64,000 nt of DNA from positions 18,900,357 through 18,964,356 of the forward strand of contig OZ316892.1 in assembly GCA_973895155.1 (NCBI GenBank), in the 5' to 3' direction. Shown here piece after piece: positions 1 to 26,831 of the stretch. This DNA is from Marsupella aquatica (Eukaryota; Plantae; Marchantiophyta). The notes under the pieces were generated by a model. It worked only from the letters and a program-made list of their open reading frames with translations, ran no database searches and was not told the origin of the DNA. Position numbers and translations under genes: made by a program. The first letter of the stretch is position 1. Every line of letters begins with the position of its first letter.

Positions 1-1902
1 TGGCAATATTCACTTACCCTATCCCAACGGCACTGCTGTGAGCTGTAGGACAGCCAACAGAAGCAGATTGTATCGATTGCATGTAAGTTAGGGTATTTTA
101 TGTATTGCGGAACAACTGTCCAAGTATGCTGCAATGGCCGGTCTTGCGCAGCTGAATGAGCCAATTTCATTTTCCCTGTGCACTTCTATTTCTCAGAGAA
201 TTCCCTGGTCATGCTCATTTCCCCCAGAGTTAGAAAACAAAGAAGAAGAGCTGACTAATTGTAATTCCAATCCATATCCTGATCGGTCAAGGATTGTTCA
301 CTACATTGGCCTTGTCATTGGCCGAGGTCACCAAATTTTGCTTGGTTTCATTCCTGTGGAGCACTGCTGTGATGGATTTGTCGTAGCATTCTGCAAACTC
401 TCACGGTTTGCTTATGGCCATTATTTGCAATTTGCTGCTACTAATATGTCTTCTTCTGAGCAGCATACACCAGAAGTAAGCAATAGTGGAGGTTTAACTG
501 CACATCAACACATCTATTGAACTACCTCTCTGCTGCTCACTGGAGGGTGAGACTTTCACTCTTTCTGGATATTGTAGTTTGTAAGCAAGTTGATTAGGAG
601 TGTTTCATGCTATGTTTACACTGTGACCCCTAGCTGGAACCAATGGAATGACACAGTGAGTGGGAACTGATAATTTAAGGTTGGTTGCTGTTGGTGAGGC
701 AAGTACAGCTCCTGCTCACCTTGCTGATCGAAGGTGCTTATCAGAGGACGTGAACACACGACATCTCCACAAAAGCAACACTTATGGTGAGGACCCGCAA
801 CGCTGAACATGTGCAGCTTGCACGCAAGGCAGAGATGTTGCGCCTTGAGTATGTCAGACTTGGGATCCTTCCAGCCCAGTCTGCATGGTACTTTGAGTAC
901 CCAGTTGTTGCCAGGAACAACTACAGCCGGCCTGTACCTGCTTCTCCACCCTTCCCAACATCCTTGGTATTTCTGTCTCTAGTACATGACCCGCCACAAA
1001 TTAGGGCCCAAGGGTGTGTGCACAGTTGCCAATATGACTATCCTGCCTGTAGGGCTTCTGGCCTAGAGTTGGATGACCGTTCTCTTGGATGTCGGTTTTT
1101 TCACAGAGCACAATGTATCATCTGGAACCACTCGCCATCCTGTAGTGTGCCTGGCGATGTCACTTGTCCTGCCCTCCCAGACCCCACCACCGGTCACTTT
1201 GGTGTCTACACATGTTTGGATCACACGCTCTAGAGGACCACTTGTCACACCGCATGCACAAACCAGAGACCATTGACCTATAACTTAACACTTTGACTTG
1301 AACAGAGAGGATATTTACTTAAGATTTTGAATTATGACCAATTTTGGGTCCAGGGTTTAGGGTCAACAGTACATAACTTATCCTATTATGGCTGCACTAA
1401 GTACAATATCCTAATTTAAGAGGCTAGCAAGCTCACTTAAAAGTCTCCTTTCAAAGACTGGAATTAATGGGCCATGTGATAACCTGGAAAAAGTGCTTTC
1501 TGCCTAACTTATTTGTCTCATTCACTATCATAGCCTATTTAGGATGTATAAATTACAACCCTCATCACAGTGCTTGATACCAATCCTGTTCAAAAAATGC
1601 ATGTTTTACATGTCACGACTGTTATATGTGATTCAAATGCATTAAATCTTGTTGCAGATCTCCTTTGGTGAATCATAGCCACAAAATTGAGGTGTAGGTG
1701 GAGCTATTGTACGAGGGGATCAGTTTTTAGTGTGGGCTCAACAAACCAAAAAGTATGTCTACTCTGCACATGTGTGTGAACATTTCATTGCAGTAGCAAT
1801 TGCCACTCTAGTCTATATGCTACATTGTACTTTTTGTACACTGCACTAAATTGTATTGTCTGTGCACTCTGCTAAATTGTACTATCTGTCTCATGCGTAG
1901 GC

Positions 1903-2583
1903 ATGGCACGCCCTAAAATCCGAGCCAAGAAGCGGGGGACAGAGGTGAGCAACACAGGTGTAGTTGGGCCAGATGGTAGTAACTTCTCCGCAAGTCAGAT
2001 TTTCCAGAAGGCAGCTCATTGTTGTGCCATTTGTGACGATGGTGGTGGCTTAGCCATATGTGAGGGCCCTTGCATGAGGCATTTCCACCTCAACCCGGAG
2101 TCTGACCTTGCTGCAGAAAACAACTGTCCAGGGGTGGGCCTCCCGTCAGCACACCAGGGAGGCTGGATGTGCACTGATTGTTTGGAGAAGCAGGCTAAGT
2201 GTGCACAGTGTGGGAAGTTGGGGTCTTATGAGGGCTCTGTTGATGCTCCACCACTTGTTAGGAAATGCCCTGACAGATATTGTGTGAGGTTCTTTTGTTT
2301 TTCATGTTTGCCCGATCTTGCCACAGCTTGCCCACTTCATAAGTGCAAGGCATGTGGTCAGCACGATGAAGATTTCTGGGTGGACATAGTCCACTGTGTT
2401 AGGTGTCCCACCATGTGGCACTTTCATTGTTTGAAGGAGCGTCAAGCAGAAGGCTATGCTTGTGACAGACACATCTATGATCACTCTGCACATGGTGTTG
2501 ATCGATGGATCTTCTATTGTCATCGCCATGCCATAGATCCTACTTTGCACACTCCCATGAGAGATCACATTTCTTGGCTTTGA
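1903..2583 (+). CDS. Stand-alone EDM2-type composite PHD finger protein (226 aa)
   Basis: CAICDDGG..CEGPCMRHFH, C..C..KQAKCAQCGKLGS, CPLHKCKAC, CVRCPTMWHFHCL and C-terminal IFYCHRHAIDPTLHTPMRDHI follow the EDM2 PHD region as I recall it (..LIYC..H.ID..L.TP.RDH). Splice acceptor CGTAG just before the ATG. Confidence 0.85.
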   Translation: MARPKIRAKKRGTEVSNTGVVGPDGSNFSASQIFQKAAHCCAICDDGGGLAICEGPCMRHFHLNPESDLAAENNCPGVGLPSAHQGGWMCTDCLEKQAKCAQCGKLGSYEGSVDAPPLVRKCPDRYCVRFFCFSCLPDLATACPLHKCKACGQHDEDFWVDIVHCVRCPTMWHFHCLKERQAEGYACDRHIYDHSAHGVDRWIFYCHRHAIDPTLHTPMRDHISWL

Positions 2584-3176
2584 ACCTGAATAATGTACAT
2601 GCATAGTGCACCTGATGTGGATACCTTGGAGATTGCAGACATTCCAATTTTGAGAAGAAGGACCTCTGTAGGAGAGGATGCTTAGGCAACAAGTACCCTA
2701 AGTTCATTACTTGTTCCTGGGTACATGCCTTCAAAAACTCCCCTTAAGCCTTCTAGGAACTTTTTTAACTCTGCAATCATTTTGATCACGACTTACATGA
2801 CACTGCTTAAATTAAATCAGGACTTCTCATTATGAGCATATAAGTTACAAGGCTATTTAATTTGCGAGAATTCCCTTAAAGTGTACCAACATTTTGTATT
2901 CTCATTGAATGTCTGCCCATTTACAACATCTGTATGTGGCATCACAAAACAACTTGTCACCTTCAATATTGTGAAGGCACATATTCAAACTATGAGGTGC
3001 ATGCTTGCAGGTGTCTAGTACGTTTGTCCCAATATTTCTCCCGTTTGGAATTGGAGCAGAGACTCGCCAGACGATTGGACTGGACCAAGTTATAAACGCA
3101 GCAGTTTAAGGGCCCTCCGATTATCAGGTGAACGCATTATCTTCCGGTCTGCAGTGATTAGGTGGCCCGTGTGTAC

Positions 3177-4025
3177 ATGGCCTCTAGGAAACGTACAAAG
3201 GTTGACCACCCGCCTCTGTTGGCTGGAATCAAAGCCATTTTGATTCCTGGCCACTATGGGTTCACCCAAGTGAGTTGGCCAATCGTACAAAAACGATTCT
3301 CAAAGTTCCATGGGACTGAAGTCAAGGACATCACTCCACAGACTACACATGTTGTTGCGGGGACATGGCTGGATGTGATGAACAAGTGGTCATGGTCCTT
3401 CATTGATTCTGCCATTACCAACCAAGGTCTAAAAGTAGTTGAAGTCTCTTGGCTGACCGATTCTGTTAAACATAGGTGTGTACAGAGTACTGAGCAATAT
3501 GAGTTGTGGGAGAGTGAGGAGGCCACTGCAGAGGCTTTGGCTGAAAAGGAAGCCTATGAAGCAGCGGCAGAGAAACCCAACTTTGCTTCTGTCCAATATG
3601 GACCTGTTGTCAACATAGGACACCATCCTATGCGTGCAGATGCTATATTGAATGAGCATGGCAAGGAGAGAAATACCATTATGAAGGGGTTCAGTGTGGT
3701 ATTTGCAGAAGAAGGAATTGGGGAGACTAAGTGCAGATTGTACAAGTCTATAGTTGTTGAGCTAGGTGGGACAGTGGAGGAGAGTCTAACAGAAACCTCC
3801 ACTCATGTTGTAGGTTTGTCATACATGAAAATATGCAGAAAATTCTTTAAGACAACAGTGCGTGATTTTGTCATGAACAACAATCTTTGGGTGCTTTCCC
3901 CTGATTGGCTTCTGGAATCAGCAGCTAGAGGGAAGCGACAGAATGCTTGGGACTTTGATATTTTTGAGGCCTGGCCCTCCAAGATTCAGCGGAGATGTAT
4001 GCTTAGCAAAGGTGGGAGAGAGTGA
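3177..4025 (+). CDS. Tandem BRCT-domain protein, BRCTs resembling the N-terminal BRCT of plant DNA polymerase lambda
   Basis: Two repeats of G.....T..THVV.....WL.(D/E)S, joined by an acidic/Ala-rich linker; N-terminal basic patch SRKRTK; ATG at 3177. Confidence 0.8.
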   Translation: MASRKRTKVDHPPLLAGIKAILIPGHYGFTQVSWPIVQKRFSKFHGTEVKDITPQTTHVVAGTWLDVMNKWSWSFIDSAITNQGLKVVEVSWLTDSVKHRCVQSTEQYELWESEEATAEALAEKEAYEAAAEKPNFASVQYGPVVNIGHHPMRADAILNEHGKERNTIMKGFSVVFAEEGIGETKCRLYKSIVVELGGTVEESLTETSTHVVGLSYMKICRKFFKTTVRDFVMNNNLWVLSPDWLLESAARGKRQNAWDFDIFEAWPSKIQRRCMLSKGGRE

Positions 4026-4102
4026 GGAGTAGGAGTCCCTCATATTTTTGTATAAATCACAATTTTGTAATAAATGTGATCCTTGAACTAACTCATCTTG
4101 TC

Positions 4103-4735
4103 ATGGTTGGTCGTAGTTGAAGTGATTGTTGTTTCCTGCTGCATGGGGTGTGACTGTGAATCTACTTGCTGGGCTCTGTTTGGCTGAAGACTTTGGTGGG
4201 TATGCTGCCTCTTCCAGACCGTCAGGCCCTATGTAGGGTCCTCCTACGGGTTGCATCGTGCATGGCTACTGCTTGGGCTTACTTGTGTGGATTGGTAACC
4301 AGACAGAGTGTAGCTCCATCCGAGATAATGCCTGCAGACCTTGGATGTGTTGTGAATGCTGTGGTGAATGAGGATGCACAGTCGGAAGAGGACATTTACT
4401 TTTCAGCAGATGAGTTAGACAAGCACGATGCTGTAGGTGGTTCCTTGTTGCCTGATTTGGCAGATGATATAGTTCTTACACATGTCTGGCCGAGGGTTCT
4501 TGTGGTGTCTGGCGCACAAGATATCTGCAAATATAGACTAATTAGTACCCAGTGGAGGGACTTGGTAGCAACATGTGCACCATGGAGGGCACTGCTGCCA
4601 CTGCTTGTAGGCACGGATCGAAGACCACCATGGCATGAGCAGGGTTTAGACCTTGATGACTTAATGTACATGCCTGAGTACCTCAGGGCTGAGTGGCATC
4701 GACAACAGGATTGGTATCCGTATTTGATGTGGTAG
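4103..4735 (+). pseudogene. F-box-like protein, probably degraded at the N-terminus
   Basis: SLLPDLADDIVLTHVWPRV...YRLISTQWRDLV F-box motif. An in-frame ATG at 4103 is followed by three TGA codons (possibly CGA>TGA) before the open 4166-4735 frame. Confidence 0.6.
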
Positions 4736-5061
4736 TAAGATGAGGACATCTCACACCGGTCTCGCACCTGGCACCTGTGTCTATGACTATACATGATTGG
4801 ACTCTGATATGGTCATGGATGTACGTGCAGAGGCAGTACATGTGAGGACAGCGGAGGAGTTGACACCCTCAAACATTTAGGAATTTTGTCTCATTCACTT
4901 GAGAATAGGTACATGACTCAGGCACCTATATTTTTTGTTTTTTTGTTTTTTTGGAACGTTACGTATTTTGGCAAGTACAGTCGGGGGTGAAATCCTTAAC
5001 AGGAAGTGTATTTTTCACTTGCATAATAAAATGACAGGGTGCTGAGTGCGTGTGTATAGTG

Positions 5062-8000
5062 ATGGCTCCAAGGTTGCCTCTTCACAACCCATTTAGGATT
5101 AGGCATCATGATTCTAAATTGTGGATGCGTGAACAAGCCCGGGCCGCCCAAGGTAGGAGTAGGAGGATGAGATGCCCATGCACACAGTGCCAAGGATTCA
5201 AGTCGTTGAGTTTGAATACTGTGCACCTTCACCTGTTGCGGCATGAAAGGCACCCTCGATGGAGGGTTTGGAATGTACCAGCAGAAGAAGACTCCTCTGA
5301 TGAAGAGTGGAGAGCTGACTTTGTGGATTCTAATACAGCTAGGCGTAGAGACTACGTAGAGCAGGACATAGACTGTGCAGAGGATGGTCCTGGGGTCCAA
5401 CATGAGAACGTGGATGACCAAGATGGAGATGGAGAGGCAGTCACTGAGGACGGTGGGATGGATGTCCCAAGAATGGTTCAAGAGATTTTTGAAGACCTTG
5501 ATGCTTTTTACGACACAGTGGAATCAGAAGAGGACAATGAACCACAGCCACACATTGGCGACGGCCAAGCTGAACCTGACTTTGACATTGGGGAAGGTGC
5601 AGCAGAGAGGGAGTGGGTGTTTGGGGGCCCAAAACACATCAAAGAAGCTTGCATTCCTATCTACGAGGGGTCGAACTGCTCCAAGCTGGGTTTTGTCGTG
5701 TTGTTGTTGAACATCTGTGGCAATCACAATGTTCCCAATATATTTGTGACAGAGTTGTTGACCTTCCTGCGCCGAAATGTGTTACCAGATGGTAATTCAA
5801 TTCCAAAAAATATGTACGAGGCTAGGAAATTGATGTCTAACCTTGGGCTGAACTATGTGTCTATTGACGCATGCCCTGATGGGTGTGTTCTCTTTCGCAA
5901 AGAGCATGCAGATAAATTGACATGCCCTCATTGTGGTAAGCACAGGTACAAGAATGTAGGGAAATGTACACACCCTGCCAAGGTTCTTCGTCATTTTCCT
6001 CTCATTCCTAGACTACAACGTCTGTTTAGATGCCCTGCCATTTCCAAGCTGATGACATGGACTCCTGATAACAAGAGCAGTGATGGCCTGCAGCGTCACA
6101 TTGGAGATTCCAACCATTGGAAATTTGTTGATGAGAGGTGGCCACAGTTTGCTGCAGAGAAGCGGAACTTTAGATTTGGTCTATCACTGGATGGAGTAAA
6201 CCCATTTGGAGACAAAAACAACCGTTATTCATGTTGGCCGGTTACGCTGCTAAATTACAACCTTCCCCCATGGATGACTACAAAGAGGTTTTTTGTCATG
6301 ATGGTGCTGTTAATCCCTGGACCAGCTTCTGTGACCGAGCAATTCATAGATATCATGTTGGCTCCAGCAGTGGAAGAGTGGAAGACTTTGTGGATAGAAG
6401 GGGTGTTAACCCATGATGTTCTGAAGGGGCTTCTTCGACCCAGCCCCTTTAGACTGCATGCAATTTGTTTGCTGGATATAGCAGATTACCCAGGCCATGG
6501 CATCATATCTGGACGAGTGACAAAGGGCTATGTGGGGTGCACACCATGTGGGAAAAATGTGACAAGTGAGTGGTCGCATGCCCTGCACAATATGAAATTT
6601 CAGGGGCATAGAAGGTATCTGCCTGTTGATCATCCTTACAGGCACACACGGTCTCAAATTGCACACTTCAACAACAAAACAGAGCTTCGTGGCCCACCAC
6701 AGAGGGTCACCAGAGAGCAAGTCCTGAGGTGGGCAGCCAGGAAGGCTGATTGGGACAAGAGAAGTGCCACTGATCGAGAACCTGAGGATCGAGTGGTGAA
6801 ACACGGTGTGAAAAGACAGACCTTGATGGACTTGGAGTTGGAGTACTGGAGGGTAATGTACTTAGCCTCCAGCCCCTGTATGATTGCAATTTTAGATTGG
6901 AGCAATGGTGGATTGATGTTGGTTACAATCCTCCTATGTGGTTAATTAGTGTTTCTGTTGTTGAATTCTTTGCTTTGTGGAGTGCAGGAATTCGAGCCCA
7001 GCAAACACAATGTGGACGTCATGCACATTGAGAAAAATATTTGTGAGAGCTTGCTGAAGTTCTTGTCGGGTGAGAAAGATACAGGAGCAGTACGAGCTGA
7101 TATGCAACAGAAGGGGATTCGCCCTCACCTTTGGTTGAAGCCCCATGCAAGCAATCCCAATGTACTTCTCAAGTTCCAAGCTCCCTATGTGTGTACACAG
7201 GATGAATGGAAGACATTCTTGTATAGATTGAGCTGTCTGAAAGTGCCCTCTGGCTATGCTGGTGCCTTCAAGAAGCATATTACAAAGAATAAACTTGGCA
7301 GTATGAAAACACATGACTACCATGTGTTGATGCAGCACATTCTGCCCCTATGCCTCAGAGGTCTCATGCAGAAACCAGTCCGTAATGTCATTCTTTGACT
7401 GTGCAATGTATTTCGCCGTATATGTGTGAAAGTGTGGGATCCCCAAGGATTGGAGCAGTTGAAGCAGGATGCTGCTTATGTCCTCTGTGACTTGGAGATA
7501 TACTTCCCCCCTGCTTTCTTTGATGTTATGACTCATCTCCTAATCCATGTGGTAGAAGAGCTAGGGCAGTATGGGCCAGTCAGTACCAGATGGATGTACC
7601 CTATGGAGCGATACATGAAGTTGTTGAAAGGTCATGTGAGAACATACTACAGGCCAGAGGCTTCCATGGCATTGGGGTACATTAAGGATGAGACGTTGGG
7701 ATTCCTAACAGAGTACATGGCTGGGTCTGGTGAAGCTATGACAAGAGTTTGGAAATCTGGTGAAGATGATGGAGTGAGTGGCGAGGTTGTTGAAGGTGTG
7801 GGACGTGCTGTTCAGCTGCCTGTTGCGATTTGAGACAAGGCTCATTCATATGTGCTGGCAAACACAGAGCCTATGCAACCATGGTGGAGGTGAGTGATTG
7901 AATTGACTTGCCTTTGTTGTGATGCTTCTTGTCTGTTCCAAGGGTGATCTTAGGTTGTCATGTGTTGTTTAGACCTAACTATGCCTGTACCTCATATTGC

Positions 8001-8762
8001 AGGGAATATGATATGCAAAAAGCTGCACACTCTGGGCAGCAGGATCCCTTCCCACAGTTCGAGCAGTGGATTCGGGTGACAATTTGAGAGCATAGTAGAC
8101 ATCACCCAGATATGGAGAAGGATTTGTATCTTCTATCTGTGCCACCACGATTGTCTATTCTGACCTACAAACGGATGAGAGCTTATGGAAATCATTATCG
8201 AGTGAGGGATGAGCAGGGTGACCATTGTGTATCATATGATTGTGGTTTGATTTCTGTGTTTGAGCAGAGAACCTCTGAAGAACAGAGGGGGTGGATGAAG
8301 ATGGGTTACGTGGGGGAGTTGACCGACATTTGGGTGTTGAATTATGGTAACACAAGTGTCCCAGTGATATTGATGAAGGGATCATGGGTGAAATCAGAGT
8401 GGCAGAGACCAAGGGCCACCATGAAGCGTGATCATGATGGGTTCTTGTTGGCCAATTTTAGGTCCAGAGTACCAGAATGGTCTGAGCCTTTTGTTTTCCC
8501 TAGCCAAGTTGAACAGGCTTTCTTTGCAGATGTGGAGGAGTCACATGGCTGGAGGGTGGTATGCCATAGCCAAGCACGGAACAGGCGGATGGATGGAAGT
8601 AAAGTAGAGTTCAGTTTGGATGACCATGCTGCATTCGAGCATCCTAGTCATGAGACTGTACTTCCAACTCGGGCAGGGACTGACTACATCCCCTTAACAT
8701 TGAGAGAGACATATGATGAACCTGGGCAAATGGAATATGATGAGGTTGATGATTTGCAATAG
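5062..8762 (+). pseudogene. CACTA TnpD/Tnp2 transposase (Transposase_21 + DUF4218 + DUF4216-like), spliced, inactivated
   Basis: CPCTQC, IDACPDGCVLF, LSLDGVNPF, YSCWPV..YNLPPW, DYPG, DVMHIEKN, MKTHDYH, FFDVMTHLLIH, WMYPMERYM, EPFVFPSQVEQAFF. Introns ~6853-6988 and ~7890-8002; in-frame TGA at 7396, 7831 and ~8085. Confidence 0.95.
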
Positions 8763-8939
8763 GCAACAGCTGGCGATTGGCAAGTATGAGGTTGAGGATG
8801 ACTACCTGCACAGAGTCACAGAACGGGAATTGCTGCCTGGAATGATGTTTAGGATAGTTGGATATGCATGAAATTGATTGATACTTTGAATTTAGTGTGC
8901 TGATTCTCCCTGTTTGGTTGTGGGTGCTGTGCAGAAGCT

Positions 8940-11900
8940 ATGGGGGAAGAGGGTGATGACATGGAGACAGACATGGGGCTTGGAGAGTGGGGTGAAGAGG
9001 AAAGATTGGATATGGATGGAGACCCAGATGCAGGGGGCTCACAGAAAAATGCACCTGTGCAAGATGCACAGGGCCCTCATCAAGTCCCAGGTAGGTGGGC
9101 AGCTAGAGAGAAATCACATAATCCATACCCTAGAAGGGGCCAGAGTTATTGGCAAGGGACGCCTGATAATTATGATGATGACTATGATGGAGCAGAAGAT
9201 GGATGGGATGAATATGAACACCCAGAGCGTGGTAGAGACGGGTACAGAGGGCAATGGAAAGGTGAGGAGGATGATTGGACAAGTAAGTGCCTTGTGCTAG
9301 TGATTTTGTGATGGTAGTAGAGATTTAGCTCAATATGCACTTATCTGATGTGTAGCTAGGGCAAAGAGTTTATCTTACAGGTCCATGAGTGTGGCATGTA
9401 CCTGTTGGTATGCAGACTCTGATTGGGACAATCACGAAAACAACAAAGGCCATCCACGTTCAGATAGGAGGCAATCATTCACAGGCGGGAGAAATGCCCC
9501 TAATTCATCAAGACAAAGCAATAGGACAGGTGGTCCAGAACCATCTATGCGCCAAGGGAGAGGTAACTTGGTCATTGCAGAATTGCTCTGAAGTCCACTG
9601 TATATTTGGCAGCGGGATTTATGATTCATACTTACCTAATGTAAGTGACTGTAAATGGATCCTGTAAATGTGCAGGGACTCCAGGGAGGTTTGGACAATG
9701 CAATCCAGGCCGTGGGGGGAGATCAGGCCGTGGAGGGATCCCAGGCCGTGGGGGGACACCAGGCCGTGGAGGGACACCTAGTAGCGCTTCAGGGATCACC
9801 AAGGCAGGAGATAGTAACAAATTTGGTAAAGTAGAAGTGAATTCCGAAGGTTGGATAACTCCCACATGTGATGGTAAGAACCGTTGGCATTCTGACCTAA
9901 GAGGAGAAGTATTGCGTTGGTTAGATTTGAGCATTACAGAGTTTAGGAGTCAGAACAAAGCTGATTGGGCTGCTATCTGCAAGGACATTCTTGAACGGTG
10001 GGAGTATGTTGGTAATGATGGTAAGGGCCCAGTTGAAGATTGCATATCAGATTATGCAATGAGGATTTTGAAACAAGAGAGGCATAGGTTGAAAAGGATG
10101 TGGATAGACAATGGTTCTAACAGGAGAATGCCACCACCCCCATCATTGGAACTGGATCAATGGACACAGTTAATCAAAGGGTTCATGTCGGAGGCTGGAC
10201 AGAGCAAGAGTGAACTGATGTCAAATGCTCGAGGCAAAGTGAAACACCTTTCACAGGCTGGGAGAGGAAGTTATGCTCCAGTGAAAGAACAATTGGTAAG
10301 GCAGTGACATGCCTGATAGTAAGCCTCAAACTTATCATCTTGCTACCATTATTACATTTTCATTGACAATCAACACTTGGTTTCATTCATATGTATGTTG
10401 ATGTGGACTGCAGAAGAAATTGACAGGTGAAGAACCATCAGCACAAGAAGTGAGAGAGGAGTTCATGAAACAAAGGAGTGAGGTGACAAGTGTAACTTCC
10501 AAACAGGTGATTATGTTGTAATTCTGTATGTTCTGTGACTATTTGGCCTTGAGCATCAGAAAGAAATGTAGTAGGAAGTAAGCAACCAGTTCTTGGGGAC
10601 AGTTATCTGAGATATGTAAGCTGTGTTATGACAGGGAACTGTTACAACTCTCACAGAGATGTGTGAACGGTTGAAGTCATTAGAGTGTGGACTCCCTCGA
10701 GTGGAAAGTAAATTGGCTGATCGTTTGGATATTGTGGAGGCATCTGTAGCGAACCTTCTTGCATCAGTGGAATCTAATTTCAAGCTTGTGATTGAAAAAT
10801 TGGGTGGTTCCCAACCAAACAATGAGGGCAACATTGTACAAAGTGTGCCCTTGTTAACAAAAAAGGGAATTGGCAATCTGACACAGGTATGGAAATGACA
10901 CCGGCCCATTGTTCATTGTGTCCTATGTTCAAATGTTAGAAGTAAGTTTTCATGAATTGAGTGAATGGTTTGAATGCAGGAAGAGTGGAGGCAGAGAAGG
11001 ACCCTGTAATCAGTAAGCAAAAGGGCAAGAAGGTTGCTGAGACAGGTAACCTGCTATGATCCAGTACATTACATTTGAAAAGTGCATGGAGTTTTGTGAA
11101 GCTTAAGCCGGTTGGAGGTAATCTTTTCTGTAAGAACTGGTTGGATGAACTGGGATCTGAAGTGACATCATGATTGATGTATCAGGTGATTCAAAGAGCA
11201 ATAATGAAGAAGATGTGCCCAGTGCCTCAGTGACCATAGCCAAGGAGGTATCAGGTAAGCTGATGCTTTAAATTCCTCTATATGAATGTTGAGCAACAAT
11301 TCAGTGGTTAATAGATTCAACGTGAATATTGTGGTGTGTTTATTGATCAACAGAAGCAGACATGGAGCATATGGCAATGGCAAAGAAGGGGAAGAAGGCT
11401 GTTCATAATGGTAAGGAGATAGTGACAACTTTGTGGTTGGTGACATGTACATTTAGCACATGTGATGAGTGATTGACTTATGTTGGACATGACACTGAAT
11501 TGTAGTTGATGCAGAGTTGACAGACTCTCAACCAAGTGGGAGTAGGGTGAAGCGACGTCGAAACTTGGGAGCAACATTGGATGCAAGTAAGATTGTAGAT
11601 GCTTCAATTGAAGCAAGTACAATGTTGGCAGATACTGAGATGATGTCACAGGGAAATCCTGCTACACAATCAGAAGTGTCAAATATGGATGCAGATTCTT
11701 TGAAGAAGAGTGTAGCCAATTCTCGATCACCAGCACAAAACACTCGTGCCAAAGTCATGACTCGCAACCAAGGTATGAATAATGTCATGTATAAGCCACC
11801 CAGGAAAGCCAAGAAAAACAGCCAGGGTAAGGTGGAGGTGATAGCCACAGCAGAGCCAGTCCATAATCTTCTATCATGGGAGGATGACTCGCAGGTATGT

Positions 11901-12110
11901 GTGGGTACAGGCATTTTGCGACCGGATCATGCAAAATTCCATGGCAAAGTGGTCCCGAATGACCATGTAGTAGTGTTGTTGACTACAGTGATTGTATCTG
12001 ATTGTAATTTGCCATTTCCGAATAGAGACGATGATCCACCTCAGGAAATAATTGCAGATGCAGTAGGATCTCTTGTGCTCTGGCCATCAGAGTGTGTTAG
12101 TCTGCAGTGA
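8940..12110 (+). CDS. CACTA TnpA-like multi-exon gene with C-terminal Tnp1/En/Spm-like domain
   Basis: Series of GT-AG bounded exons; PPPSLELDQWTQLI..F....Q.KSE.MSNAR (TnpA-like); last exon GTG....KFHGKVVP...VVVL...LPFP..DDPPQ...DAVGSLVLWPS. Confidence 0.75.
9705..9780 (+). repeat. 18-bp tandem repeat (x4) encoding PGRGG(T/I/R)
   Basis: CCAGGCCGTGG(G/A)GG.... repeated in a TnpA exon. Confidence 0.85.
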
Positions 12111-12938
12111 CTAAATGCAAGTGTAGATAGAATCATGTGAATTGTGTCACATTTTGACATTGCCTTGGAAAGATCCAAGAAATATCTGTACCAATTTTTC
12201 CATTTGGTAAAGAGGATGAAGGAGCCGTTGTGTGTGACATTGATATTTCTGAATTCTGTATGTATGAAACAAGTGATTGATGTCAAACTATGGCTCTATG
12301 GTGATTGTCTATGATACTTGAATCTGTTTTGTATCATTTCAGTATTAGTGTGTATGGTATAGAGGAATACTTTGTGACCTTCTTTGTAGTCTATGAAGTT
12401 TGAATCTGTGAATTCATATTAGTGTACATGGTATAGAAGATGGCTTTCTGAAACTATGTATTCTAATGTTAACATGATGAATGGTGAACTTATAGAGTGA
12501 GTTCATTCCAAGTACACAATAAAACATGAATGCAATATGTTATTTGTGCACAAGAGTGGGTTCATTCCAAGTAGTATAGTGGGGTCTTCATCACTCATAT
12601 CCAGTTGACATGAAAGACTTATACATACCCCACAAAGTATATTTAAAGACTACCCTCCATAACCTTTTTAGTCGTTCCCAACGACTCACCATCTCAGCCC
12701 ATAAAAGACTGAAAACGACTCACCAAAGCTACCCACACAAAGACTAAAATAGACTGAAAATCCAATCTATTAAACGACTTATAAACCAGTTCTATAAAGG
12801 ACTCAGTTGATTATAGTAACAAAACATACGACTCGCAGTCCTATAAAGGACTGGAGTCCTTCCCAGTCGTTTCCAAGTCCTATACGGTACTGAATAGTCG
12901 TTTAATGGGGTCTAAATACCCCCCGGTTTCTACTAGTG

Positions 12939-14530
12939 GACCAAACAAGATCCTTACGAAATGCCAATTGAAATAAATTATCATTGGCATTCAGAACCTC
13001 AGAATCTTTATGTACACCCCAGTCCTTTAGATTGATTTCAGTGGCACACTCCTTCTTGAAATCAACATTTGATGATGCTCCATTCTCTACAAATCGCATG
13101 TGAATGTAATTCACTCTTTGGATGGTGCTCATTTGTTCACGAAATTCAGAGTCTATATTATGACTCCAAGCTAAGTTCCTTGCTTCCTAGATAGACAAGC
13201 CTGCAAAGATCCAAGATTGCACTCTCCTATACAACTTGTTGTTGGGAAATTGTAATGCCAGGTCTGCCTTTGCACAAGCAGAATGATTTCCCCCAATCAC
13301 GTAATAGTGGTAATCATTCTTTTTTGAGAAATCAAAATCAGCTTGAGTTGGGCACTCCTTGGGATCAACCAAGAGAACAAAAGGTGCTGCCAATGGACTA
13401 GCTCCAGCTGCTTTCATCCTTGTTGTCAACTGTGTAAGAAAGTAGGGTTGGATATGCCTTACTTGGTACACTGGCAACTCCAAAGATTTCTCCCGAACAG
13501 GTGGGTGAAGTTGTGCAATGTCAATTGTGATTGTCTCCTCTTGAACTCCACACCTCATCAAAATCCCTTCCTGGTACACCACCCGAGCATCCATAGACAT
13601 AGATTGAGCCTTCTGCTCCAGATGAGTGGGGCCTTTTTCCAACGTCTGCTTCTTGGATTTTGGTGGACTTGGTCTTGCACCTTGAGAACCCTTTGGTCCA
13701 CGTTTCTTTGATGAACTCCGAGTATCGGTAGTGCCCTGTGCTGATCCTCCAGTCACAGTTGTCCCCTCTTGTGATCTTGCAATTTGTGAACCAGCACCTG
13801 ATATTGGAGATGTAACAACCATCTTTCTCGCTAGGACAGAACTTGGACGAGATCCGGAAGGAGCAAAAGAAGGACCAGACTTTGGTGGACGGGCACTGGC
13901 ACTCTTCTCTGCTGCTTTTCGAAGAATCTCCCTAGACTTTCAAATTGCACTCTTCAATGTGCTGGCATGATGTTCAAACACAAAACCAGCAATGAGCTCT
14001 GCAATCTCATCGTAGCTTTCTTCTGTAGACAGATTCTTCACCTTCTCAATGATCATCTCAATGTCATCAGGCAAGTAACAATGTGCAGCTCTTCCAGAAA
14101 ATCTCTCACTGTCAACTGCAATCAGTGTAGATGTCTCCTTTGTTGTGATAAGCATATTGAGGACATCAGTCCCTCGTCGAAAGACATCAATCCGGCCATA
14201 ATTCACCCAACCAAGACCTCCAGAAGGCAAGGTCTTGTAGATGCACAACATCAAAAAAGGCTTCTTCCACGATTCTGTACCCAATGATATTGTCCAGGAA
14301 GAGTTTCCAAAATCTGTCAAAGGATGCTCAACAAAAATAGCGTCTAACACCTTCTCCTGTGATTTTGGTTCAACCATTCTGACTTCCTGAAATCAAGTCC
14401 AACAATGCAAAGTCAGCTCTGTTTGTTTTTCAAGTTCAGTTGCAGAATTCAGGTTCATGATTTCATGAAGCAAGGTTCTTACCTTGACAGTGGAGTTGGA
14501 AGTTGAATTTGCAGCGCCTGTTGTTCCCAT
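12939..14530 (-). pseudogene. ParB/Sulfiredoxin-like domain protein (transposon accessory gene), 5' part only
   Basis: ORFs 13940-14377, 13187-13822 and 12902-13132 share a frame and are separated by single stops. IDIAQLHPP...YQVR...PFVLLVD...YYVIGGNHS..A...W..AGL....A..LAW.HN is a ParB-like pattern. Short first exon at 14530 and intron ~14481-14396. Confidence 0.6.
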
Positions 14531-14699
14531 TTAGAAGAGTGTCACTGGTATTTTTATCCCTGATTTTGGCTTAGCTTATCTCCTTCACCTCCCTGGCAGA
14601 TGCCTAAGCTGATCGACCCCTCCCCACTTAATGTTGTTTGCAATGTCCTCCCCAATTTGGACCTCATCCCTTCGGCAATGGTCGATCCTCCCCAGGCCT

Positions 14700-15200
14700 T
14701 CAACTAAAGCTCCCTCTCTCGGCCTTTGACTATTGCTCCCTCCCTCACAGCGCCTCGACAATTTTCCTCCCCCCCGGCCTTAGCCAATTTCTTCCTCCCC
14801 CCCGGCCTTCGCCAATTTCTTCCTCCCCTGGCGCTTCGACTATTTTCCTCCCCCCGGCCTCGACAATTTTCTCCCCCCGGCCTCCACACGTTTTCCTCCC
14901 CCCGGCCTCGACACTTTTTCCTCCCCCCGGCCTGCGCCTCGACACTATTTCCTCCCCCAGGCCTTTGCCAATTTTTCCTCCCCTGGCCGGTGCTTCGAGT
15001 AATTCCCCTCCCCGAGGCCGACGCTTCTTCCCCGCGCCCCCGGCTGCGCCTCAACAATTTGTCCTCCCCCCGGACTTTGCCAATTTTGCATCCCTCCCCT
15101 GGCCTTCAAAAATTTCTCCTCCCTCCCACAAACTTTGCCAATTTCCTCTCCCCAGGCCTTCGACAATCCCTCCCCGAAAACTCTCTCCTGAGCACAAACT
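14700..15200. repeat. C-rich degenerate minisatellite (~24-28-bp unit, TTTTCCTCCCCCCGGCCTCGACA-like)
   Basis: More than a dozen visible units; G-runs on the minus strand. Confidence 0.9.
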
Positions 15201-17084
15201 TGCACGACAGCTTTTGATCTTGTTGTCTCCTAACCAAATTTCTTCCACTCCCTTCCACGATTAATCCTCCATTCCACGACCGATCTGCGCCTCAACAGCC
15301 AGGAAATTACAGAGTTGCACCAGATGTTGGTCCGCCCTCGATTTTCAGTTCCAGTTTAGGGATTCAACCCAACTCCTATTCAGACCACACCAATCACTGA
15401 GGGAAGAGCTTTCCACAGCACCAAGCTTCAGCCCACCATAGCTCTTCGCCAAGCTTCCTTTCCGTTCGCGCTTTGCAGATGCACGCCCACACTCCAAGCA
15501 CCTGACAGTCCAATTTGTCTCAAAATTAGCATTTTCTAATTTTTGGGGTCATGAATTCATGAAGCTTTCGCCACCTCCACTTCAGGAATCCAGGAAGGTC
15601 GTAACCCTTCATGAATTCATGAAAGGGAATCAAGTATCATTTTGAAAGAATCTAGTGAAAAGTCAAAATTTGGGCCAAAAATAACCAATACCATGGGTAA
15701 TAGAAATACAAGAAAAACCAAGAAAACCCCTAAAAATAGGGGTCATCAAAAACATTTTGGTTGCAATTGAATAGTCTCCAAAAACCTCAAAGAAAACATG
15801 GGGTAAAAATGACCAATGCATTACTGATACACTATCTTAAGAGTTTGGCATGAAAACATATGCTAAAAGTAAAAAATAAAATTATGAGAAGCCTCACAAT
15901 ATTTCAGGAGAAGACTTCACAGGAATGAATTAACCAAGTCTGCAAGAACTCTAATGAGTATTAGAAACCTGAAAACATAAGTAAACCTGTGAGATTTTGA
16001 GAAATAATAAACTATTTGTTCATGAAAGATTTCTTTCCTTGCCACTAATTCCTAATGAAGGGCGTGGCCCTTTTTCTTATTTTATTGCTAATTAAGTTTT
16101 TGAGTTATTTCCAAAATCTATAAAAGGGGCTTCGTATTCATGACTCTATCTCATTTCTATTTTTCAGTTTGAGTTCATTTGGTGTTCTAGGTGTTCCCTT
16201 GTGAGTTTTGTGCAATTTTTGAAATGGCAGCCTGTTATGAGTCAGACGATTATTTGGATGGTATTTCGGATGATGTTTCCTTCCCGGATTGTCCTTGTCC
16301 TGTTACTTCTCCAGATGCTCCTAGTAAAACCACTATTTTGGAGATGCTTCCCCCAACTCAATGAGTAAGTTGAAAGGAAAGGCTCTAAGTGTACCAAATA
16401 TTCAGCAAAAAGTATTTGGTCCTTGCCTTAGTGAGCACTCTGACTCTTCGGACTCATCTGAGAGTACAAGTCCCCCTGGCCGTCAAGTATTATCGAATCC
16501 TTCTCAAAGGGGGGTTAAATTGGGTGTGCGTTCTGTAGGCCCTCAACATAGTGGAGAGCTGAAAAAGAGGACTCATGAATTCATGAAGGCCAGATCTGGA
16601 GATGTGCCAAAAAGGCCTAGTGAAAGCCCAAAAGTGGATTTTTGTGCACTCCGGGAAAGTTGTGGTGTGCAACATGCAACAATGAAAGAGAGTGAGTATT
16701 CTCGTCCTACATCTTTCAGATTTCAAGAAGGAGTGAGAGTGGAAACAAGGAGGCCGCTTGGAACTGAGACTAATTCAAACAAGGAGAGGATCAATTTGAG
16801 AAGATCTCCAAGGAACTTTGATCATTTGGCTGAGGTTGGAAGTGGATCTAAGTAGATATACAACAAGGGCAAGAAGAAGGTCTTTGAGGAGATTCCAAAC
16901 AAGAGGCCAAGAGAGTCAACCGAAGGTGGTTTCTTTGGGAATTCAGATCGAAATCGATCAAACTCACTCCTTTTGAGAGTGAAGGAAGAGCCATTGAGTC
17001 CTCAAGGGCCTGCTCGAGGGCGGGTGAGGAGGGGTTTGTCTACATACCAACTTGATAAACTTGTGGATATATCTTCTTCAATCG

Positions 17085-18010: not shown

Positions 18011-20961
18011 TCTGAGAGTGATGGAGAGCTTGCAGAGAGAGTTATGATGGCTAATAAACGACCGTCAAATCTCAGCTTGTGTGAAACAAAGATGACAGAG
18101 GAGGATATCAAGCCGAACATTGGTATTGAGTTCTTGGTTGAAGTCTTTTTTTGAGACTCGTGTGGAGACTCTACCAAATAAAGATGTTTCACATTTGCCT
18201 GATAATTATTCCAAACTAGAAGTTTGGAAAATATATGATTCAAGCTATGTGATCACTGATGAGTCATCCAAAATATCATATCGGCAATTTTTGAAAGTAT
18301 GGTCACAAGACTTTGGGCATGTGAAGATTCCTCCTGTGAATCGTTTGAGTGCTTGTGCGAACTGTGAAGAATTCAAAACGATTCGAGACAAAGGAGTCTC
18401 GGAAACTGAAAAACGTAAGTCATTTTCATTTTTGTTGTTTTGAACATGTCTTTGTATTAGATTTGTCAGGAAATCAATTGAGTAATGGGTAAACATTAGG
18501 AATGAATTTCAAGCTAACAACTTTGCTCTACCATTTTTGGATTGATTGCAGGGAGAGGAGAAATAATGTTACAAAAACATCAAGAACAACAATCGAAAGA
18601 GCGGGAAAAACTAGCAAAGCATCGAAAGAAATGTTTCACAAACCCAGAAAAATATTTGCGAGTTGTGATAGATGGAATGGATCAAAAAAAGACTAGATTA
18701 CCCCATTGGCCACGTCCTCCAAAATCCGTTGATGAGTCCTGTTTAATCCAAATGCACGTGGTTGGTTGTCTTCTTTTCCACGGAGCACTATTTTCTAGAG
18801 TGTTCCTTAATTATCCAATTCTCCATAATGATGGAAATCTTACCATTACTATTTTACAAAGAGTATTCTTAGAATATCAAGAGAAGTATGGGGGCCTTCC
18901 ACCAGTTTTTTAACTTCAGCTTGACAATACAAGTAGGGAAAACAAAAACAATTTACTTTTCACATATCTTCACATGCTGGTACAAAAAAAGGTATTTCGA
19001 AAAATCAAACTTGGATTCCTCTTAGTTGGACACACCCATGATCAAATAGATCAGATGTTTAGTAGGTTCTCAAAAAGGCTTGGAAGATTTAAGGCCTTTA
19101 CCTATGATAGTTTATGTAAGATTATTCAAGAATCTTACCAACCCCAACCTGAAATTACCCTTTTAAATGAGACATATGATTTTCGAAAATTTTCTTTCTC
19201 AAAGCCTGCTTTGATCAGAGAAAGGATACGAAATGTTACGTTTCATCACCAATATAAAATTTCTTTTGCTTGTGAAGATGATCAAGTTCCAACACAATGG
19301 GGGAAGAAATTTTCCACCGACATGGTTTGGAAACCAGAAGGAGGTGTTAAATTGTTGAAAGAAGACATGCCACCAAAGGTGATTGGGTGCTCTGATGGGA
19401 TGCCACTTATCAAGAAAGGAGACAAGAAACGAGATGACGGAAGGGCGGGAAACCAAGCTCATGTATCATCTTCAGGAAAAATGACGTTGTCCGAAATGGA
19501 TGATTGTTTGAATGAAATTCAAAAAGGTATATTTGCAGCTCAAATATTATTCTCGGAAGAAGAAGTTGTTTGGTGGACTTCTTTTTTTGAGGAACAAAGA
19601 GAATTCAATCGATCTCTCTTGCTTGAAGAAAGACCTTTGATCTCTCCATTTGAATGGCCCAAGGCACAAGGGGATGCAAATGTTGAAGCTCATCTCGGAG
19701 CTGAACCTCTTACAACTATATTGAATGAGGAAGAAATTGAAGAGAGAGTGTACGGTCCAACTAGAGAAATTTATGTTGGTCCATATCGAAATCAAGAAAA
19801 GATAGATGCAGAGAAGGAGAATATGGAAGGTGATTTTTTGGATTTGGAAATCAACACATTTATTTCTGTGGCCGGAGAGAAGTCTGAATCATTTTGGGTG
19901 GCTAAAGTAGAAAAAATTGTTCTTCGCGATGAGGCTCACATCCCAAAGATTATCTCAGTTTTGTGGCATGCAGCAAAGAAAGGATCCGACCCTTGGAAAG
20001 GAAAATATCTGCCAGAAGTGTTGAGTTACGAGAAGAAGAAAAGTGGACGAGGCAAGGGAACCTTGAAACCAGTTTGGTTTTGTCAAGACCTTGATCTGTC
20101 TTCAACTACGGTCTTTGCATATAATTTTATGCTAACAAGGTCTGATACTCTTTACAAGAAAACAATAGATCGTATTAAAATACGACTCTCAGAATTTCTC
20201 AAGGAGAAGCAAGACCAAGAAGGTGAAGGTAGCATAGTTAGAAATTATCAACAAGAAACTTCAATGGAAGTTCCTCTAGAAATGAATGGTAGGAATTGAG
20301 ATTTACCAATCTTAGCAATTTTGTCAAACAAGTGTATTTGCAATTTATTATTGTTTGAGTTGGTGGCAAACCATAAATGTTGTGAACATTGATGAATTCA
20401 TGAATTCATGAATCATATTGAAAGAAGTTTGACATTTTGAGAATGTCCATCGTGTGGCCAGTCTTGTTTGAGAAATTCAGAAAACAAAATATTAACTAAA
20501 AGAGGTACCTTCTAGAATCCCATATATATTTGAAAGCTTTTGATATACTCGTCATTCCCTTTGTGTGATCAAATGATGGTTTTTCTTGGTAAATGAACCC
20601 TAGGATCCTACAAACTGCAAAATAATTCAGAAATCTTGACCCTCTTTTGAAAACTTTACATATTTGGGATGTCAATGAACTTTAGGGTGGTATTTCAAGG
20701 GTGAATGTGTTATTGAGCCGATTGAATGTGTGCTAGTAATAAATTGCAACATTGAAATATGTGGTATTTGCTTATTAAATGTTTCCCACAACCAGTTTTG
20801 TGATTTTGAGTAGTCAAAATGATGCCCTATTTTGTGTTTTTTTGCAAGTTTTGAGTTCTTGCCAAAAAAAGAGCTTGTTTTTAGATGCATTTTTTGGCTT
20901 TTTCCATATTTTCAAGGTTTTTTATCATTAGTTCTTATACATTGGGCTTATTACCCATCCT

Positions 20962-21708: not shown

Positions 21709-22679
21709 TCCTATACTAAGGCTATGGTAAGCTCAGAGGGGTCACTATATGGAGGGCCATACATCACGTGCGACATTTTAGGGTTTGACCCCCCTAACTT
21801 ATAAGTGAAAAATATTTTTTGCAAAGCCCTTTCTTTCTTTCAAATTTGTCAGTTTTTATTAAACCACAACTCGCCGTATTTAGGGCTCCGCATTACGCGG
21901 AGTGCTCATACCAGAAGGTATCGTGTATTGTCTGCCTCCCGTATTTCTGCTGCGCCTCCTAATACCCTTCGGATACGTATTTGCAGCTGCGCCTACACTG
22001 GACCGTTCGATTCAGTATTGGACTCAAATTGTAGATCTCGACGAGATCTACAACTGGGAAAAAACAGCATCCCAAAATACCTAATATTTTGGAAGAAAAG
22101 AATCAAAAACAAACGCTGCGATCCCATTGGTTCGTATGTTTTTTGAAATTCAAAATAATCCGGGCAGCTGCAGCGGGCAGATACGGGTAGTCACAGTACA
22201 AAATGAGGGTTGATAATGGACGTATGTAAGATCTGTGCATTCATTACATAGCATGTGAAGGGATTGTCAAGACCATTACAAAAGGCTGTCCTTACGGATG
22301 GGAATTTCAAGAAGGATGGGGAGCTTTCGAGAAGAATCTTGGCTCATAAGATATTTGAAAAGCAAGAAGCTCCGTGGCAATTTCTGCCCCATATGAAGGT
22401 TCTAGTATAAATCATGTATATTGATACATCCATCAGATGCAGGATCCTAGGGCTCATATGGATGTATGAAATTCTGAACTGGATGAGGATACGGTATAAA
22501 AAGCCTGGCTGGTGAACTAGTGAACAGTCTTAGTTGTTGTCTCTTTAGGGTAGTTGCAAATTCCCCTTCTCATCTTATGTTCTGCGCTTGTATTTTGTGA
22601 AAGGACCTAAAATTGCCTTGATTATGTAGAGGATGGGGCTTGGCACCTGGTCTATGTCCTACCTTTTCCCTACTAATCT

Positions 22680-23145
22680 TGTTACCTGGTGTTTTTTTTA
22701 CTTGGACAGAAAATCAGTTTTTTGCTTATGTCAGTGGCAGTGTATGAGTGGCAGTGTATGAGCATCCTATCTTTCCTCTAGTAATTTTTTAGGTGTTTGT
22801 TTTACCAAGGCAGCACATCAATTTTGTACTTTGTTTACCAGAGTGTTTGGTATGGAGCGCCCTACCTTACTCTAGTAATCTTTTTAGGTGTTTTTTTACT
22901 TAGGCAGCACATCAGTTTTTTACTTTGTTTACCACAGTGTATGGGATGGAGTGTCCTACCTTTCTATCGTAATCTTTTTAGGAGTTTTTTTTACTTAGGG
23001 AGCACATCAGGTTTTTTCTGTGTTTACCACAATGTATGGGATGGAGTGTCCTACCTTTCTATAGTAATCTTTTTAGGTGTTTTTTTTTACCTCGGCAGCA
23101 CATCAGTTTTTTTCTTTGTCTACAACGATGTATGGGATGGAGCCT
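22680..23145 (+). repeat. ~83-bp tandem repeat (5-6 units) ending at the transposase start codon
   Basis: TAGTAATCTTTTTAGGTGTTTTTTTACTTAGGCAGCACATCAG...GTATGGGATGGAG units. Confidence 0.9.
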
Positions 23146-26100
23146 CCTGATCTTCCTAGTAGACGTCGTAAACGTCCTCCTCAGGGTGTTGGTCCTTCAA
23201 GACCAAAGTACCCAAGTGATGACATGGAATATAGGAAGAGGACAAGACCAGTTGCCAAGCCACCAATCCGAGTCCCATTGGAGCGATGGGATGAGTGGGA
23301 GGGTCTTAGGGGTTTATTGGGGGATGGCCCAAATACAACACATGCTACAGTTGTTCACTGGTTGATTGACACTTGTAGAGTTCAAATTGATGAGTTGAGG
23401 ATGCAGGGAGCAAATGAGGCAGCAACAATCCAGCATGATGCATTGGCACCTGGGGCAGAGACACCAGAACCATCCGCTGCACCCGACACCATCATGTTTG
23501 ATCTCAATTCAGACCTGGTTGAGGAGGAGCCAAATGTAGGTTCTTCTGGGTTATTTGCCTTCCTGCCTCATTTTCATTGGAAAGATTTATCACAATTTCT
23601 GATGTTGTGTCCAATGAAAGTCACACAAGTCCCTATGTCTCAGGTTCAACTTTGTTTGTGTAAGACTATGTATTTCTCTTACATTGTACATTGTAAAAGC
23701 CTATATATCCAAAATGGAATTAACTACAACACTAGTCTAACAAATGGATTTTGGTCTGAAGTCATGGATTTCAATGGACAACTTTTCTCTGTTTTTTGTA
23801 TTGTATCAAATTGAAGTCACACACTTCCCTTCTGCTTAGTGAGCCTAACAATTGCGGTAAATTTTCAGGACTCTTTACATGAGCAGCAGCCCACACATTA
23901 TGAGGGAGGAACGGGGGGAGGACATGATGTTTTCAGGACTATTTATATGAAATTGTTAGATGTATCATGCTAATTATATGTACCCAAATTATATAATTAG
24001 CACTAGAAAAATATTTCTCAAGCACATTGTTATCTCAAACTCCAACAATTACTTGACATGTCATGCAGGATGACAACAACTCCATCCGGCCAGAGGACAT
24101 GGTAGAGTCCTTTGGAGTGGAAGAGGAGGACATCATACCTTTGGGTGGATCTGATGACCCAGATGTTTTAGTTGCTCTAGGGGTTGAGGTATGTCATGCC
24201 TAAAAGCTTTTGTTCAGTTTTTATTGCAAATGTCACATTTTTTACTTCTAACTGATCTGCTTGTTTTGTGGTTGCAGACCTTGAGCTCGGATCTTCATGT
24301 TGAAGATGATGCACCGTCCATTATTCATGACTCTCAACCTTTACCAACACAGGTCATAGATTCTCAAAGCGATGTAGTACTAGATTGTCAACCTCCAATT
24401 GTCCCTCCTTTTGCTGCAGATCCTATTAGAACTAGATTTGCAGCTCGTGTTCCAGCTAGAGTTGGTTTTCTAGAGTGTCATTTGATACATACTTTTGTAG
24501 ACCAACTACTTCCTACATGTCATACATCTGGATGTCCTCTCACTCCTCGAGTAGAGCATATTCATGAATTGCAGCAACTATGGTCCATTCGTATTAGTTG
24601 TGGTCAGGAAGGTCATGGGTGGACTTTCCTTACTGGTGAGATGGAGCCAGGGAGGGGCACACCTATGATTACACCTATGTTATATCACTCCACATTGTGC
24701 ATTGGCTTGACATATTTGGCATTGGCCTCAGTCACTTCACATTTAGGATTACATGTTCCTAGTCCACATCATTGGCATGATTTCCAGACTGGCCATGGAC
24801 GACCTAGAGGAGGATGGATTGCGGCAATGAAGGGCCAGTGGGAGGCAGAGAAAAGGGTGTTGTGGCAAGAGTTGAAGGATGGTCTATAGTATAGGCGTGA
24901 CCACAATCCCCATGAAGCAGGTTAGTGTCAAGTTTATAACATACTTGAGTGTTCATTACTCTCAACCTTTTTTTGGGACAATATAATGACTTAGTAAATT
25001 ATTTTGTGGGTTTTTACAGATCCTGGTCTAGTTGTGTATCTAGATTGCAGATGGGACTCATCCAGGAGTGGTTATCATGGGGCTGTTTCCATTATCAATG
25101 TAGAGGATAATAGGGTCATTGAAATGGTAACTACTACTAGAAAGGAGGAGGCCAATTCATGGTACCATGAGGAGAGGGGAACCAGAAAGGCATTGGAGAG
25201 ACTTCGAGATAACGGTATTGTCATAAAGGAGGCCATCCATGATGATAATAGGACGGTAGATACTGTTATTGATGACTTGGGGATCAACAATCAGAAAGAC
25301 ATGTGGCACAAGGCCAAACATTTGTGCAAAAAATTTGTGGAGAAGGTGGTCAAGGCCACCTTTCTTATCAATGTGGATATTGATCTTGCCACAACTAGGT
25401 CGGCCTTGACAGCTGCCACTTGCAAGAATTTGCAAGATTGGTTGAAAGCCCGCAACGAGTACAGGGGTTGCTCCAACCTGAGAAATACAGGGGTTGCTCC
25501 AACCTGAGAAAGGATGCGTTAGTCCATAAGGTGGCAGATATTAGAGGATTGCCAATGGAGACATTGGTCCCTGTAGTGACCCGTGGATTGAAACATCCAG
25601 AGCTTGTGCAACACCCAAGTTGAAGACTTGGTTTTATGTTTGTTGTTGTCGTTGCAAAAATACGTAAGTATAATTTTTCTTATTTGAATTTTTTCAGGAT
25701 TGTTATTTTATTTTTCACAAGGTTGCTATCTTGTATGTTTAGTGTAAGGCTGGAGAACTGGACAATATAATTATTTATAGATGCTCTTTTGTTGTGCAGA
25801 GGAGGGAATAGTGAGTCATTGGCCTATGAGCTAAGCAATTGTGCCTATCATTGGGCTGGTGTTCATACAAAATGCTTGACATTGCCTGATCGACCATGTC
25901 ATCACATTCACGAGGAGGGAGCTACACAGCTAGACTTATATTATGAGAGAGGTGTGCAACTAATTTATGTCCATATTTTATTTCATATGTTGTCAATAAC
26001 CTGACATTATTATTTGCCAACCAAAGACTGACTATTCATTTTCTGTTGTAATGCAGATTCGCCCACTCACCTGGCCATGAAGAGTTTCATGGCCAAGTAC

Positions 26101-26827: not shown

Positions 26828-26831
<4 letters not shown>

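Follow-up and report, generated by a model that had tools for sequence, protein, structure and literature searches.

A conserved, likely transposon-borne EDM2-type PHD module in the liverwort Marsupella aquatica and its predicted function

Several described systems bear on how a plant transposon may deal with the silencing imposed on it. Arabidopsis EDM2, a member of the ASI1-AIPP1-EDM2 complex, binds H3K9me2 and has a role in distal polyadenylation, according to the available portions of the papers that describe it (PMC7472560, PMC9910501, PMC4980392, PMC7529245, PMC3632883). Transposons also encode factors of their own: the VANC and KIU proteins of VANDAL transposons act on the silencing of the element that encodes them, KIU with a captured host Ulp1 domain, and the TnpA protein of Spm has an anti-silencing activity (available text of PMC13317346 and 10.64898/2026.08.24.746577, respectively). 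These proteins recognize DNA motifs and cause hypomethylation. Host genes can be carried as well, since Pack-CACTA elements hold host-derived sequence inside CACTA transposons (PMC13317346) and fungal transposons carry TET/JBP genes (PMC12730594), again as far as the available text goes. The term 'PHD' is absent from the portions available of PMC13317346 and 10.64898/2026.08.24.746577. A transposon-borne EDM2-type PHD family is not described in the literature searched, a scope that leaves aside most subscription papers and Repbase, and a repeat-library entry may exist. PHD fingers as such occur in other mobile elements.

The window considered here is a stretch of 64,000 nucleotides from M. aquatica, and it holds near its left edge a 226-residue open reading frame that encodes little more than a composite PHD module (Table 1). 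The surrounding DNA has several features by which a CACTA element is recognized, namely a TnpD-type transposase, a TnpA-like gene (the Pfam match of which is under the cut-off), and a right-end terminal repeat accompanied by subterminal repeats. The transposase matches Transposase_21 (E 9e-60), DUF4218 (E 5e-28), DUF4216 (E 1e-5), and Transpos_assoc (E 2e-4) in Pfam, and is broken in this copy by in-frame TGA codons at 7396, 7831, and 8085. A search of the rest of the window for a match to the right terminal repeat, and hence for the left end, returned none. Nor was any terminal repeat found between the PHD ORF and the transposase, which share the plus strand. The earlier note's view of the ORF as transposon-borne, therefore, holds for this copy, given the same-strand Transposase_21 gene, the right terminus, the lack of an intervening terminus, and the contig cover described below. 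The tandem-BRCT ORF would add a phospho-peptide or DNA-repair-type module to the cargo of the same element. The small Cys-rich ORF near the left edge has neither a Pfam match nor a usable Atlas match. Five proteins of the window were also looked up by exact sequence in the protein collection, where none is present.

Table 1. Features of the CACTA element and of the 226-residue protein (nucleotide positions refer to the window; zinc ligands are numbered by residue).
Feature	Position	Strand	Evidence
Visible part of the transposon, 12.9 kb or more; left end beyond the window	1..12938	+	Contig depth, variant contigs, uniform CG depletion
Possible cargo ORF rich in Cys and outside known families; starts with ATG 784 or ATG 835	784..1233	+	
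Pyrimidine-rich tract with TAG two bases 5' of the ATG; candidate 3' splice acceptor	1878..1900	+	
Stand-alone EDM2/NSD-type triple-PHD ORF, 226 aa	1903..2583	+	ORF, Pfam, alignment, structure model
Putative zinc ligands, first eight of 24	C41 C44 C53 C57 H62 C75 C90 C93		Alignment
Putative zinc ligands, second eight of 24	C100 C103 C122 C127 C132 C135 C143 H146		Alignment
Putative zinc ligands, third eight of 24	C148 C151 C165 C168 H173 C176 C206 H209		Alignment
Tandem-BRCT ORF, intact, 282 aa; likely cargo	3177..4025	+	Pfam BRCT E 7e-14, two stretches
Open frame with weak F-box-like stretch	4160..4735	+	Pfam F-box E 0.082, under cut-off
CACTA TnpD-type transposase, two inferred introns	5062..8762	+	Pfam
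TnpA-like exons	9645..12110	+	Transposase_24 E 0.0095, under cut-off
Subterminal repeat cluster, AACGACT / AAAGACT-like motifs in both orientations	12550..12910	.	
Right terminal inverted repeat; reverse complement begins CACTAGTAGAAAC	12926..12938	-	

The PHD ORF runs without interruption from its ATG at 1903 to a TGA at 2581-2583. Its product begins with MARPKIRAKKR, ends with TPMRDHISWL, and contains 22 Cys and 16 His residues. The description from which this work started, an uninterrupted 226-residue frame with a basic N-terminal patch and a Cys/His array, was thus verified; the TPMRDHI motif, which had been taken as the end of the protein, is present but is followed by three further residues. 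ORFs of at least 226 residues with an ATG are rare by chance, at a mean of 0.01 per 13 kb in a first-order Markov simulation of positions 1-13000 (200 runs). Nevertheless, the intactness of a lone copy is weak evidence, because the chance of the ORF being stop-free at the stop density of the transposase is about 0.56. Pfam recognizes PHD-1st_NSD, PHD_NSD, and PHDvar_NSD in this order, with E-values from 1e-5 to 6e-3, all of them under the curated cut-offs, and the top Atlas match is a streptophyte NSD-type PHD cluster (0.93). The structure model, based on a 32-sequence alignment, reaches a pLDDT of 83.4 and a pTM of 0.80, with residues 1-21 poorly predicted. Fold searches with this model gave partial PHD matches only, headed by NSD2 PHDvC5HCH (Z 5.3, rmsd 2.6, 75 aligned), and the NSD PHD1-3 region is absent among the structural matches listed.

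The start of the ORF bears on whether it is complete. Upstream of the ATG, the reading frame is closed by an in-frame stop at 1873-1875, and a candidate splice acceptor lies between this stop and the ATG. The homologue P0013 reads V-G-M at the position matching the ORF start. From these sequence features, a spliced leader upstream of the ATG is plausible, and the protein may have an additional upstream coding exon. When 16 host EDM2-like proteins were compared with positions 1-5100 of the window, no match outside the ORF was obtained at an E-value below 0.01. An exon of a longer host gene, which the earlier note had named as an outcome that would count against it, thus receives a divided answer, as the candidate acceptor speaks for it and the comparison with host proteins against it.

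Repetition of the element was assessed with the public contigs of four runs (X1, X4, X5, and X6, the last from another organism), mapped onto positions 1-13000 in 30 bins. All 30 bins are covered in X1, X4, and X5, and 26 in X6. The contig records matching these 13 kb number 617 in X1, 5,289 in X4, and 631 in X5, and 394 of the 617 X1 records are less than 99% alike. Long pieces of X1 at a depth of about 1,300-2,100 occur along the 13 kb, and those at about 1,700-2,100, a depth that has no single-copy baseline and does not equal copy number, recur from 3052 to 12874; inside the PHD ORF, at 2054, the X1 depth is 2,934, which likewise does not give a copy number. The Cys-rich ORF sits in the deepest bin of X1 and X4. 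The X6 contigs are deep in two bins of the PHD ORF (1,974 and 1,267) and in two of the transposase core (3,427 and 1,860), while the bins flanking the PHD ORF are nearly empty (5 and 1.5). Both the cover in X1, X4, and X5 and the depth of ORF and transposase core in X6 fit a repeated element that has the PHD ORF as a regular part. Among the contigs listed, none joins the PHD ORF to the transposase in another copy, and the genomic context of the ORF is read from one copy only. The CG depletion of the element is uniform, with observed/expected ratios of 0.26-0.31.

The rest of the window is largely occupied by other sequences of repetitive appearance. Broken minus-strand ORFs at 12905-15264, two pieces of which were scanned without a Pfam match, lie beside a GC-rich repeat block (14711-15144) and are likely to represent a further mobile element that adjoins the right end of the CACTA transposon. 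A DUF7869 gene with an in-frame stop (18518-20299, plus strand, E 7e-36) is likely the transposase of another superfamily; its CWG ratio of 0.67 makes it the sole tested segment that is clearly CWG-depleted. CWG is undepleted in the CACTA element (1.43), but evasion of CHG methylation was rejected as an explanation, the neighbouring element (1.42) and a copia element (1.21) being undepleted as well. The latter is a degenerate retrotransposon recognized by translated motifs at 31380-35640 on the minus strand. Broken ORFs with no Pfam match extend from 23077 to 28621, preceded by 94-96-bp tandem repeats (22688-23148), and two small minus-strand ORFs (27020-27457 and 28208-28621) are related to each other. 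A second TnpA-like C-terminal exon (29544-30383, plus strand), 37% identical to 11499-12110, is a remnant of another CACTA element, and a DDE_Tnp_4 transposase fragment is found at 39186-39626 (plus strand, E 8e-14). Two long inverted repeat pairs, 21738-21863 / 40678-40799 (83+38 nt, about 19 kb apart) and 62092-62253 / 63243-63404 (162 nt, about 1 kb apart), are possible ends of other DNA transposons, and a degenerate tandem array of at least 13 copies of a unit of about 75 bp occupies 52489-54771. A host gene of the OVATE family (45421-47514, minus strand) is undepleted in CG, with a ratio of 0.89. Its nearest named relative is from Calypogeia fissa (90% over residues 480-697), followed by those of Marchantia (71-73%) and Riccia, an order that makes a leafy liverwort the likely host.

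The PHD ORF belongs to a family of stand-alone proteins. A word-index search yielded five full-length relatives at 38-82% identity, and a full-library profile search gave 547 matches, of which the best 150 were examined. Counting the matches listed and the members of their clusters, the family comprises at least 21 proteins besides the query, the intact ones being 36-82% identical to it. A start of the form M-A/T-R is found at the matching position in 12 of 21 relatives, and the intact ones keep the zinc ligands and a DHISW-type end. A lack of conservation, which had been put forward as a reason to abandon the initial reading, is thus not what was found, ligands, start, and stop being kept down to 36% identity. 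Frameshift-like tails, read from the sequences, occur in seven of the 21 relatives, and none of the 18 checked against NCBI and UniRef is represented there, as is expected of repeat cargo. The DNA around the relatives (alignment A3) was sought in metagenome contigs, where 0 of 112 stretches were confirmed, and in viral contigs, where the count was 0 of 29. A DNA match for the relative P0158, covering one of 48 stretches and 19 residues only, was judged to be due to chance. Longer forms were sought among 3,354 candidates of a word-index search that missed EDM2 itself, and only two distant NSD-like proteins came up.

Whether the module derives from an EDM2-type or an NSD-type protein was addressed with profiles, motifs, and trees. 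The best non-family profile matches listed include proteins of Calypogeia (CAM6087769.1), Riccia (KAL3685775.1), and Marchantia (MPTK1_2g00350); the family profile scores 144.5 bits against a Calypogeia EDM2-like protein and 133.6 bits against MPTK1_2g00350. Human NSD2 reaches 45.1 bits, over profile positions 12-170 of 217 only. The EDM2-type C-terminal motif (C-x2-H...DH[ILV]x[WF]) is present in 10/10 family members and 52/61 methyltransferase-bearing EDM2 proteins, and in 0/6 NSD-like proteins. The 226-residue protein thus has the three-finger order and C-terminal motif in common with Arabidopsis EDM2 and with the three liverwort proteins named above, but it is about 30-34% identical to EDM2-like proteins and forms a single frame inside a transposon. 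NSD1, NSD2, and NSD3 share the Pfam order of the fingers and supply the best structural match, but differ by the low profile score and by their SET and PWWP domains, for which no Pfam match was obtained in the PHD ORF or in the neighbouring ORFs scanned.

The trees were computed from 44 rows, 10 from the family and 34 others, leaving out partial relatives and the protein P0006; their NSD-like rows are unnamed library matches, not animal NSD proteins. The family forms one long-stemmed clade with a support of 100/100 in both trees. Its sister group consists of six EDM2-like proteins without a methyltransferase domain, three of them named liverwort proteins, supported at 97/89 under LG+G4 and at 74/81 under a mixture model. 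Approximately unbiased tests rejected neither a grouping with the NSD-like proteins (p 0.32) nor one with the canonical Marchantia-type EDM2 (p 0.30). An EDM2-type origin of the module is favoured by these sequence comparisons, and capture from a methyltransferase-less liverwort EDM2-like paralogue is likely. The initial assignment to EDM2 is, therefore, upheld by the profile scores and the C-terminal motif as far as animal NSD proteins are concerned, but not by the test against the NSD-like grouping. The composite module of 2.5-3 PHD fingers with its C-terminal motif is present, but the ORF ends after it, and because both the N-terminal RFD-like and the C-terminal methyltransferase-like domains are absent, the protein is not an EDM2 orthologue.

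The stand-alone form itself is not new, because PHD-only EDM2-like genes exist in rice (Os03g0266600, 345 aa) and Marchantia (MPTK1_4g03050, 280 aa), both likewise short and mostly made of the same module. Such genes lend some credit to the idea that the ORF is a passenger, either a functionless fragment of the Pack-CACTA kind or a small host PHD gene picked up recently, possibly as the final exon of a larger gene; the candidate splice acceptor and an element context known for one family copy only point the same way. This reading is, nevertheless, quite improbable in view of ligands, start, and stop conserved over such distances, the deep and variant-rich contig cover, and the lack of matches to host EDM2-like proteins around the ORF. 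The rice and Marchantia proteins are also annotated host genes in which the acidic residues and His ligand discussed below are unchanged, and the family clade stands apart from them on its long stem. Pack-CACTA cargo resembles the PHD ORF as host-derived sequence within a CACTA element, but in the available text it is a recent fragment, whereas the ORF belongs to an intact and deeply conserved family beside transposase genes.

The module has been remodelled in three respects throughout the family. First, an acidic residue among the four that precede the first Cys is found in 0/20 family members against 115/120 host proteins parsed (of 132), and the second position before this Cys is His in 17/20 members. 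Second, finger 2 has Cys in place of its His ligand in 10/10 members against 0/61 methyltransferase-bearing EDM2 proteins. Third, the linker after this ligand has seven residues in 14/14 members parsed, compared with a median of 27 among host proteins. Alignment to AIRE PHD1 places H39 at D297 and E54 at D312, which contact H3K4 and H3R2, respectively, and the D297A substitution weakens binding to H3K4me0 some 20-40-fold (available text of PMC2261226). As the acids before finger 1 are missing in 20/20 members, histone binding may be reduced. An acid matching D312, after the third Cys, is retained in 19/20 members, and finger 1 has largely preserved its G-x-W/F stretch. Either docking to the H3 N-terminus would be kept with an altered preference at K4, or histone binding would be weakened.

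If the fingers read histones poorly, the protein could be a decoy or protein adaptor, binding host partners of EDM2-like proteins to titrate or redirect them. The changed surface and the kept C-terminal EDM2 motif would suit such a role, and the PHD5-C5HCH tandem of NSD1 binds a protein partner. The idea is unlikely all the same, as the R2-contact acid and most of the finger 1 stretch remain, and the available text of the literature examined does not give the partner-binding region of EDM2. In either case, H3K9me2 reading by EDM2 is not to be assumed for a module so remodelled, and the Arabidopsis mark need not apply in liverworts, since Marchantia transposons are described with H3K9me1, H3K27me1, and H3K27me3 (10.1101/827881, as available). 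EDM2, ASI1, and IBM1 are unmentioned in the text of 10.1101/2024.09.22.614159 covered by a term look-up. Two parts of the earlier note, accordingly, are not supported as they stand: its H3K9me2/ASI1/AIPP1 model, which came from Arabidopsis, and its picture of the ORF as nothing more than the reader part of Arabidopsis EDM2.

The conserved, likely transposon-borne EDM2-type module is real, and its function can only be predicted. The reading preferred here, at a probability of roughly 0.45, is that of a chromatin adaptor captured by the transposon, maintained by selection, predicted to bind H3 tails, and aiding the expression of its own element. The PHD module would go back to an ancient capture of part of a liverwort EDM2-like gene, and the ORF would have been kept by long-term purifying selection. 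Its predicted product, a zinc-finger adaptor without a catalytic domain, would dock through finger 1 to H3 tails at silenced copies of the same element. Its mark preference likely differs from that of EDM2, because the acid matching D312 is kept and those matching the H3K4 contact are lost. Anti-silencing or read-through would then benefit the long same-strand run formed by the Cys-rich ORF, the PHD and BRCT ORFs, TnpD, and TnpA. Transposon-encoded anti-silencing has precedents in VANC, KIU, and TnpA, which the 226-residue protein would resemble as a transposon-encoded factor, although its own part in silencing is only predicted and, on the available text, it would differ from them as a presumed histone reader. 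Since the element's CG depletion is consistent with prolonged methylation, any anti-silencing would be incomplete.

That the PHD ORF shares its strand with TnpD and TnpA also brings insertion targeting to mind, by which the protein would tether the transposition complex to chromatin bearing a given mark, and chromatin readers do steer integration in other elements. With the PHD module in a separate ORF rather than fused to the transposase, and with no contact surface identified, the chances of this seem slim. Within the preferred reading of an adaptor aiding its own element, the most far-reaching version would give liverwort CACTA transposons a long-held, dedicated, and re-tuned EDM2 reader gene, which would counter silencing through histones, secure full-length multi-ORF RNA, and differ in its route from VANC and TnpA, which are guided by DNA motifs; this version is speculative and, for now, doubtful.

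The plant transposon proteins known so far to counter silencing recognize DNA motifs, and a route through histone reading would, if true, differ from them. The reader would, if true, also have been taken from the very module by which flowering plants carry transcription across heterochromatin. Being small, made of a single domain, and altered in three respects throughout the family, the protein would provide a direct test of the residues that set the mark specificity of EDM2, and the family offers a handle on the role of EDM2-like proteins in bryophytes.
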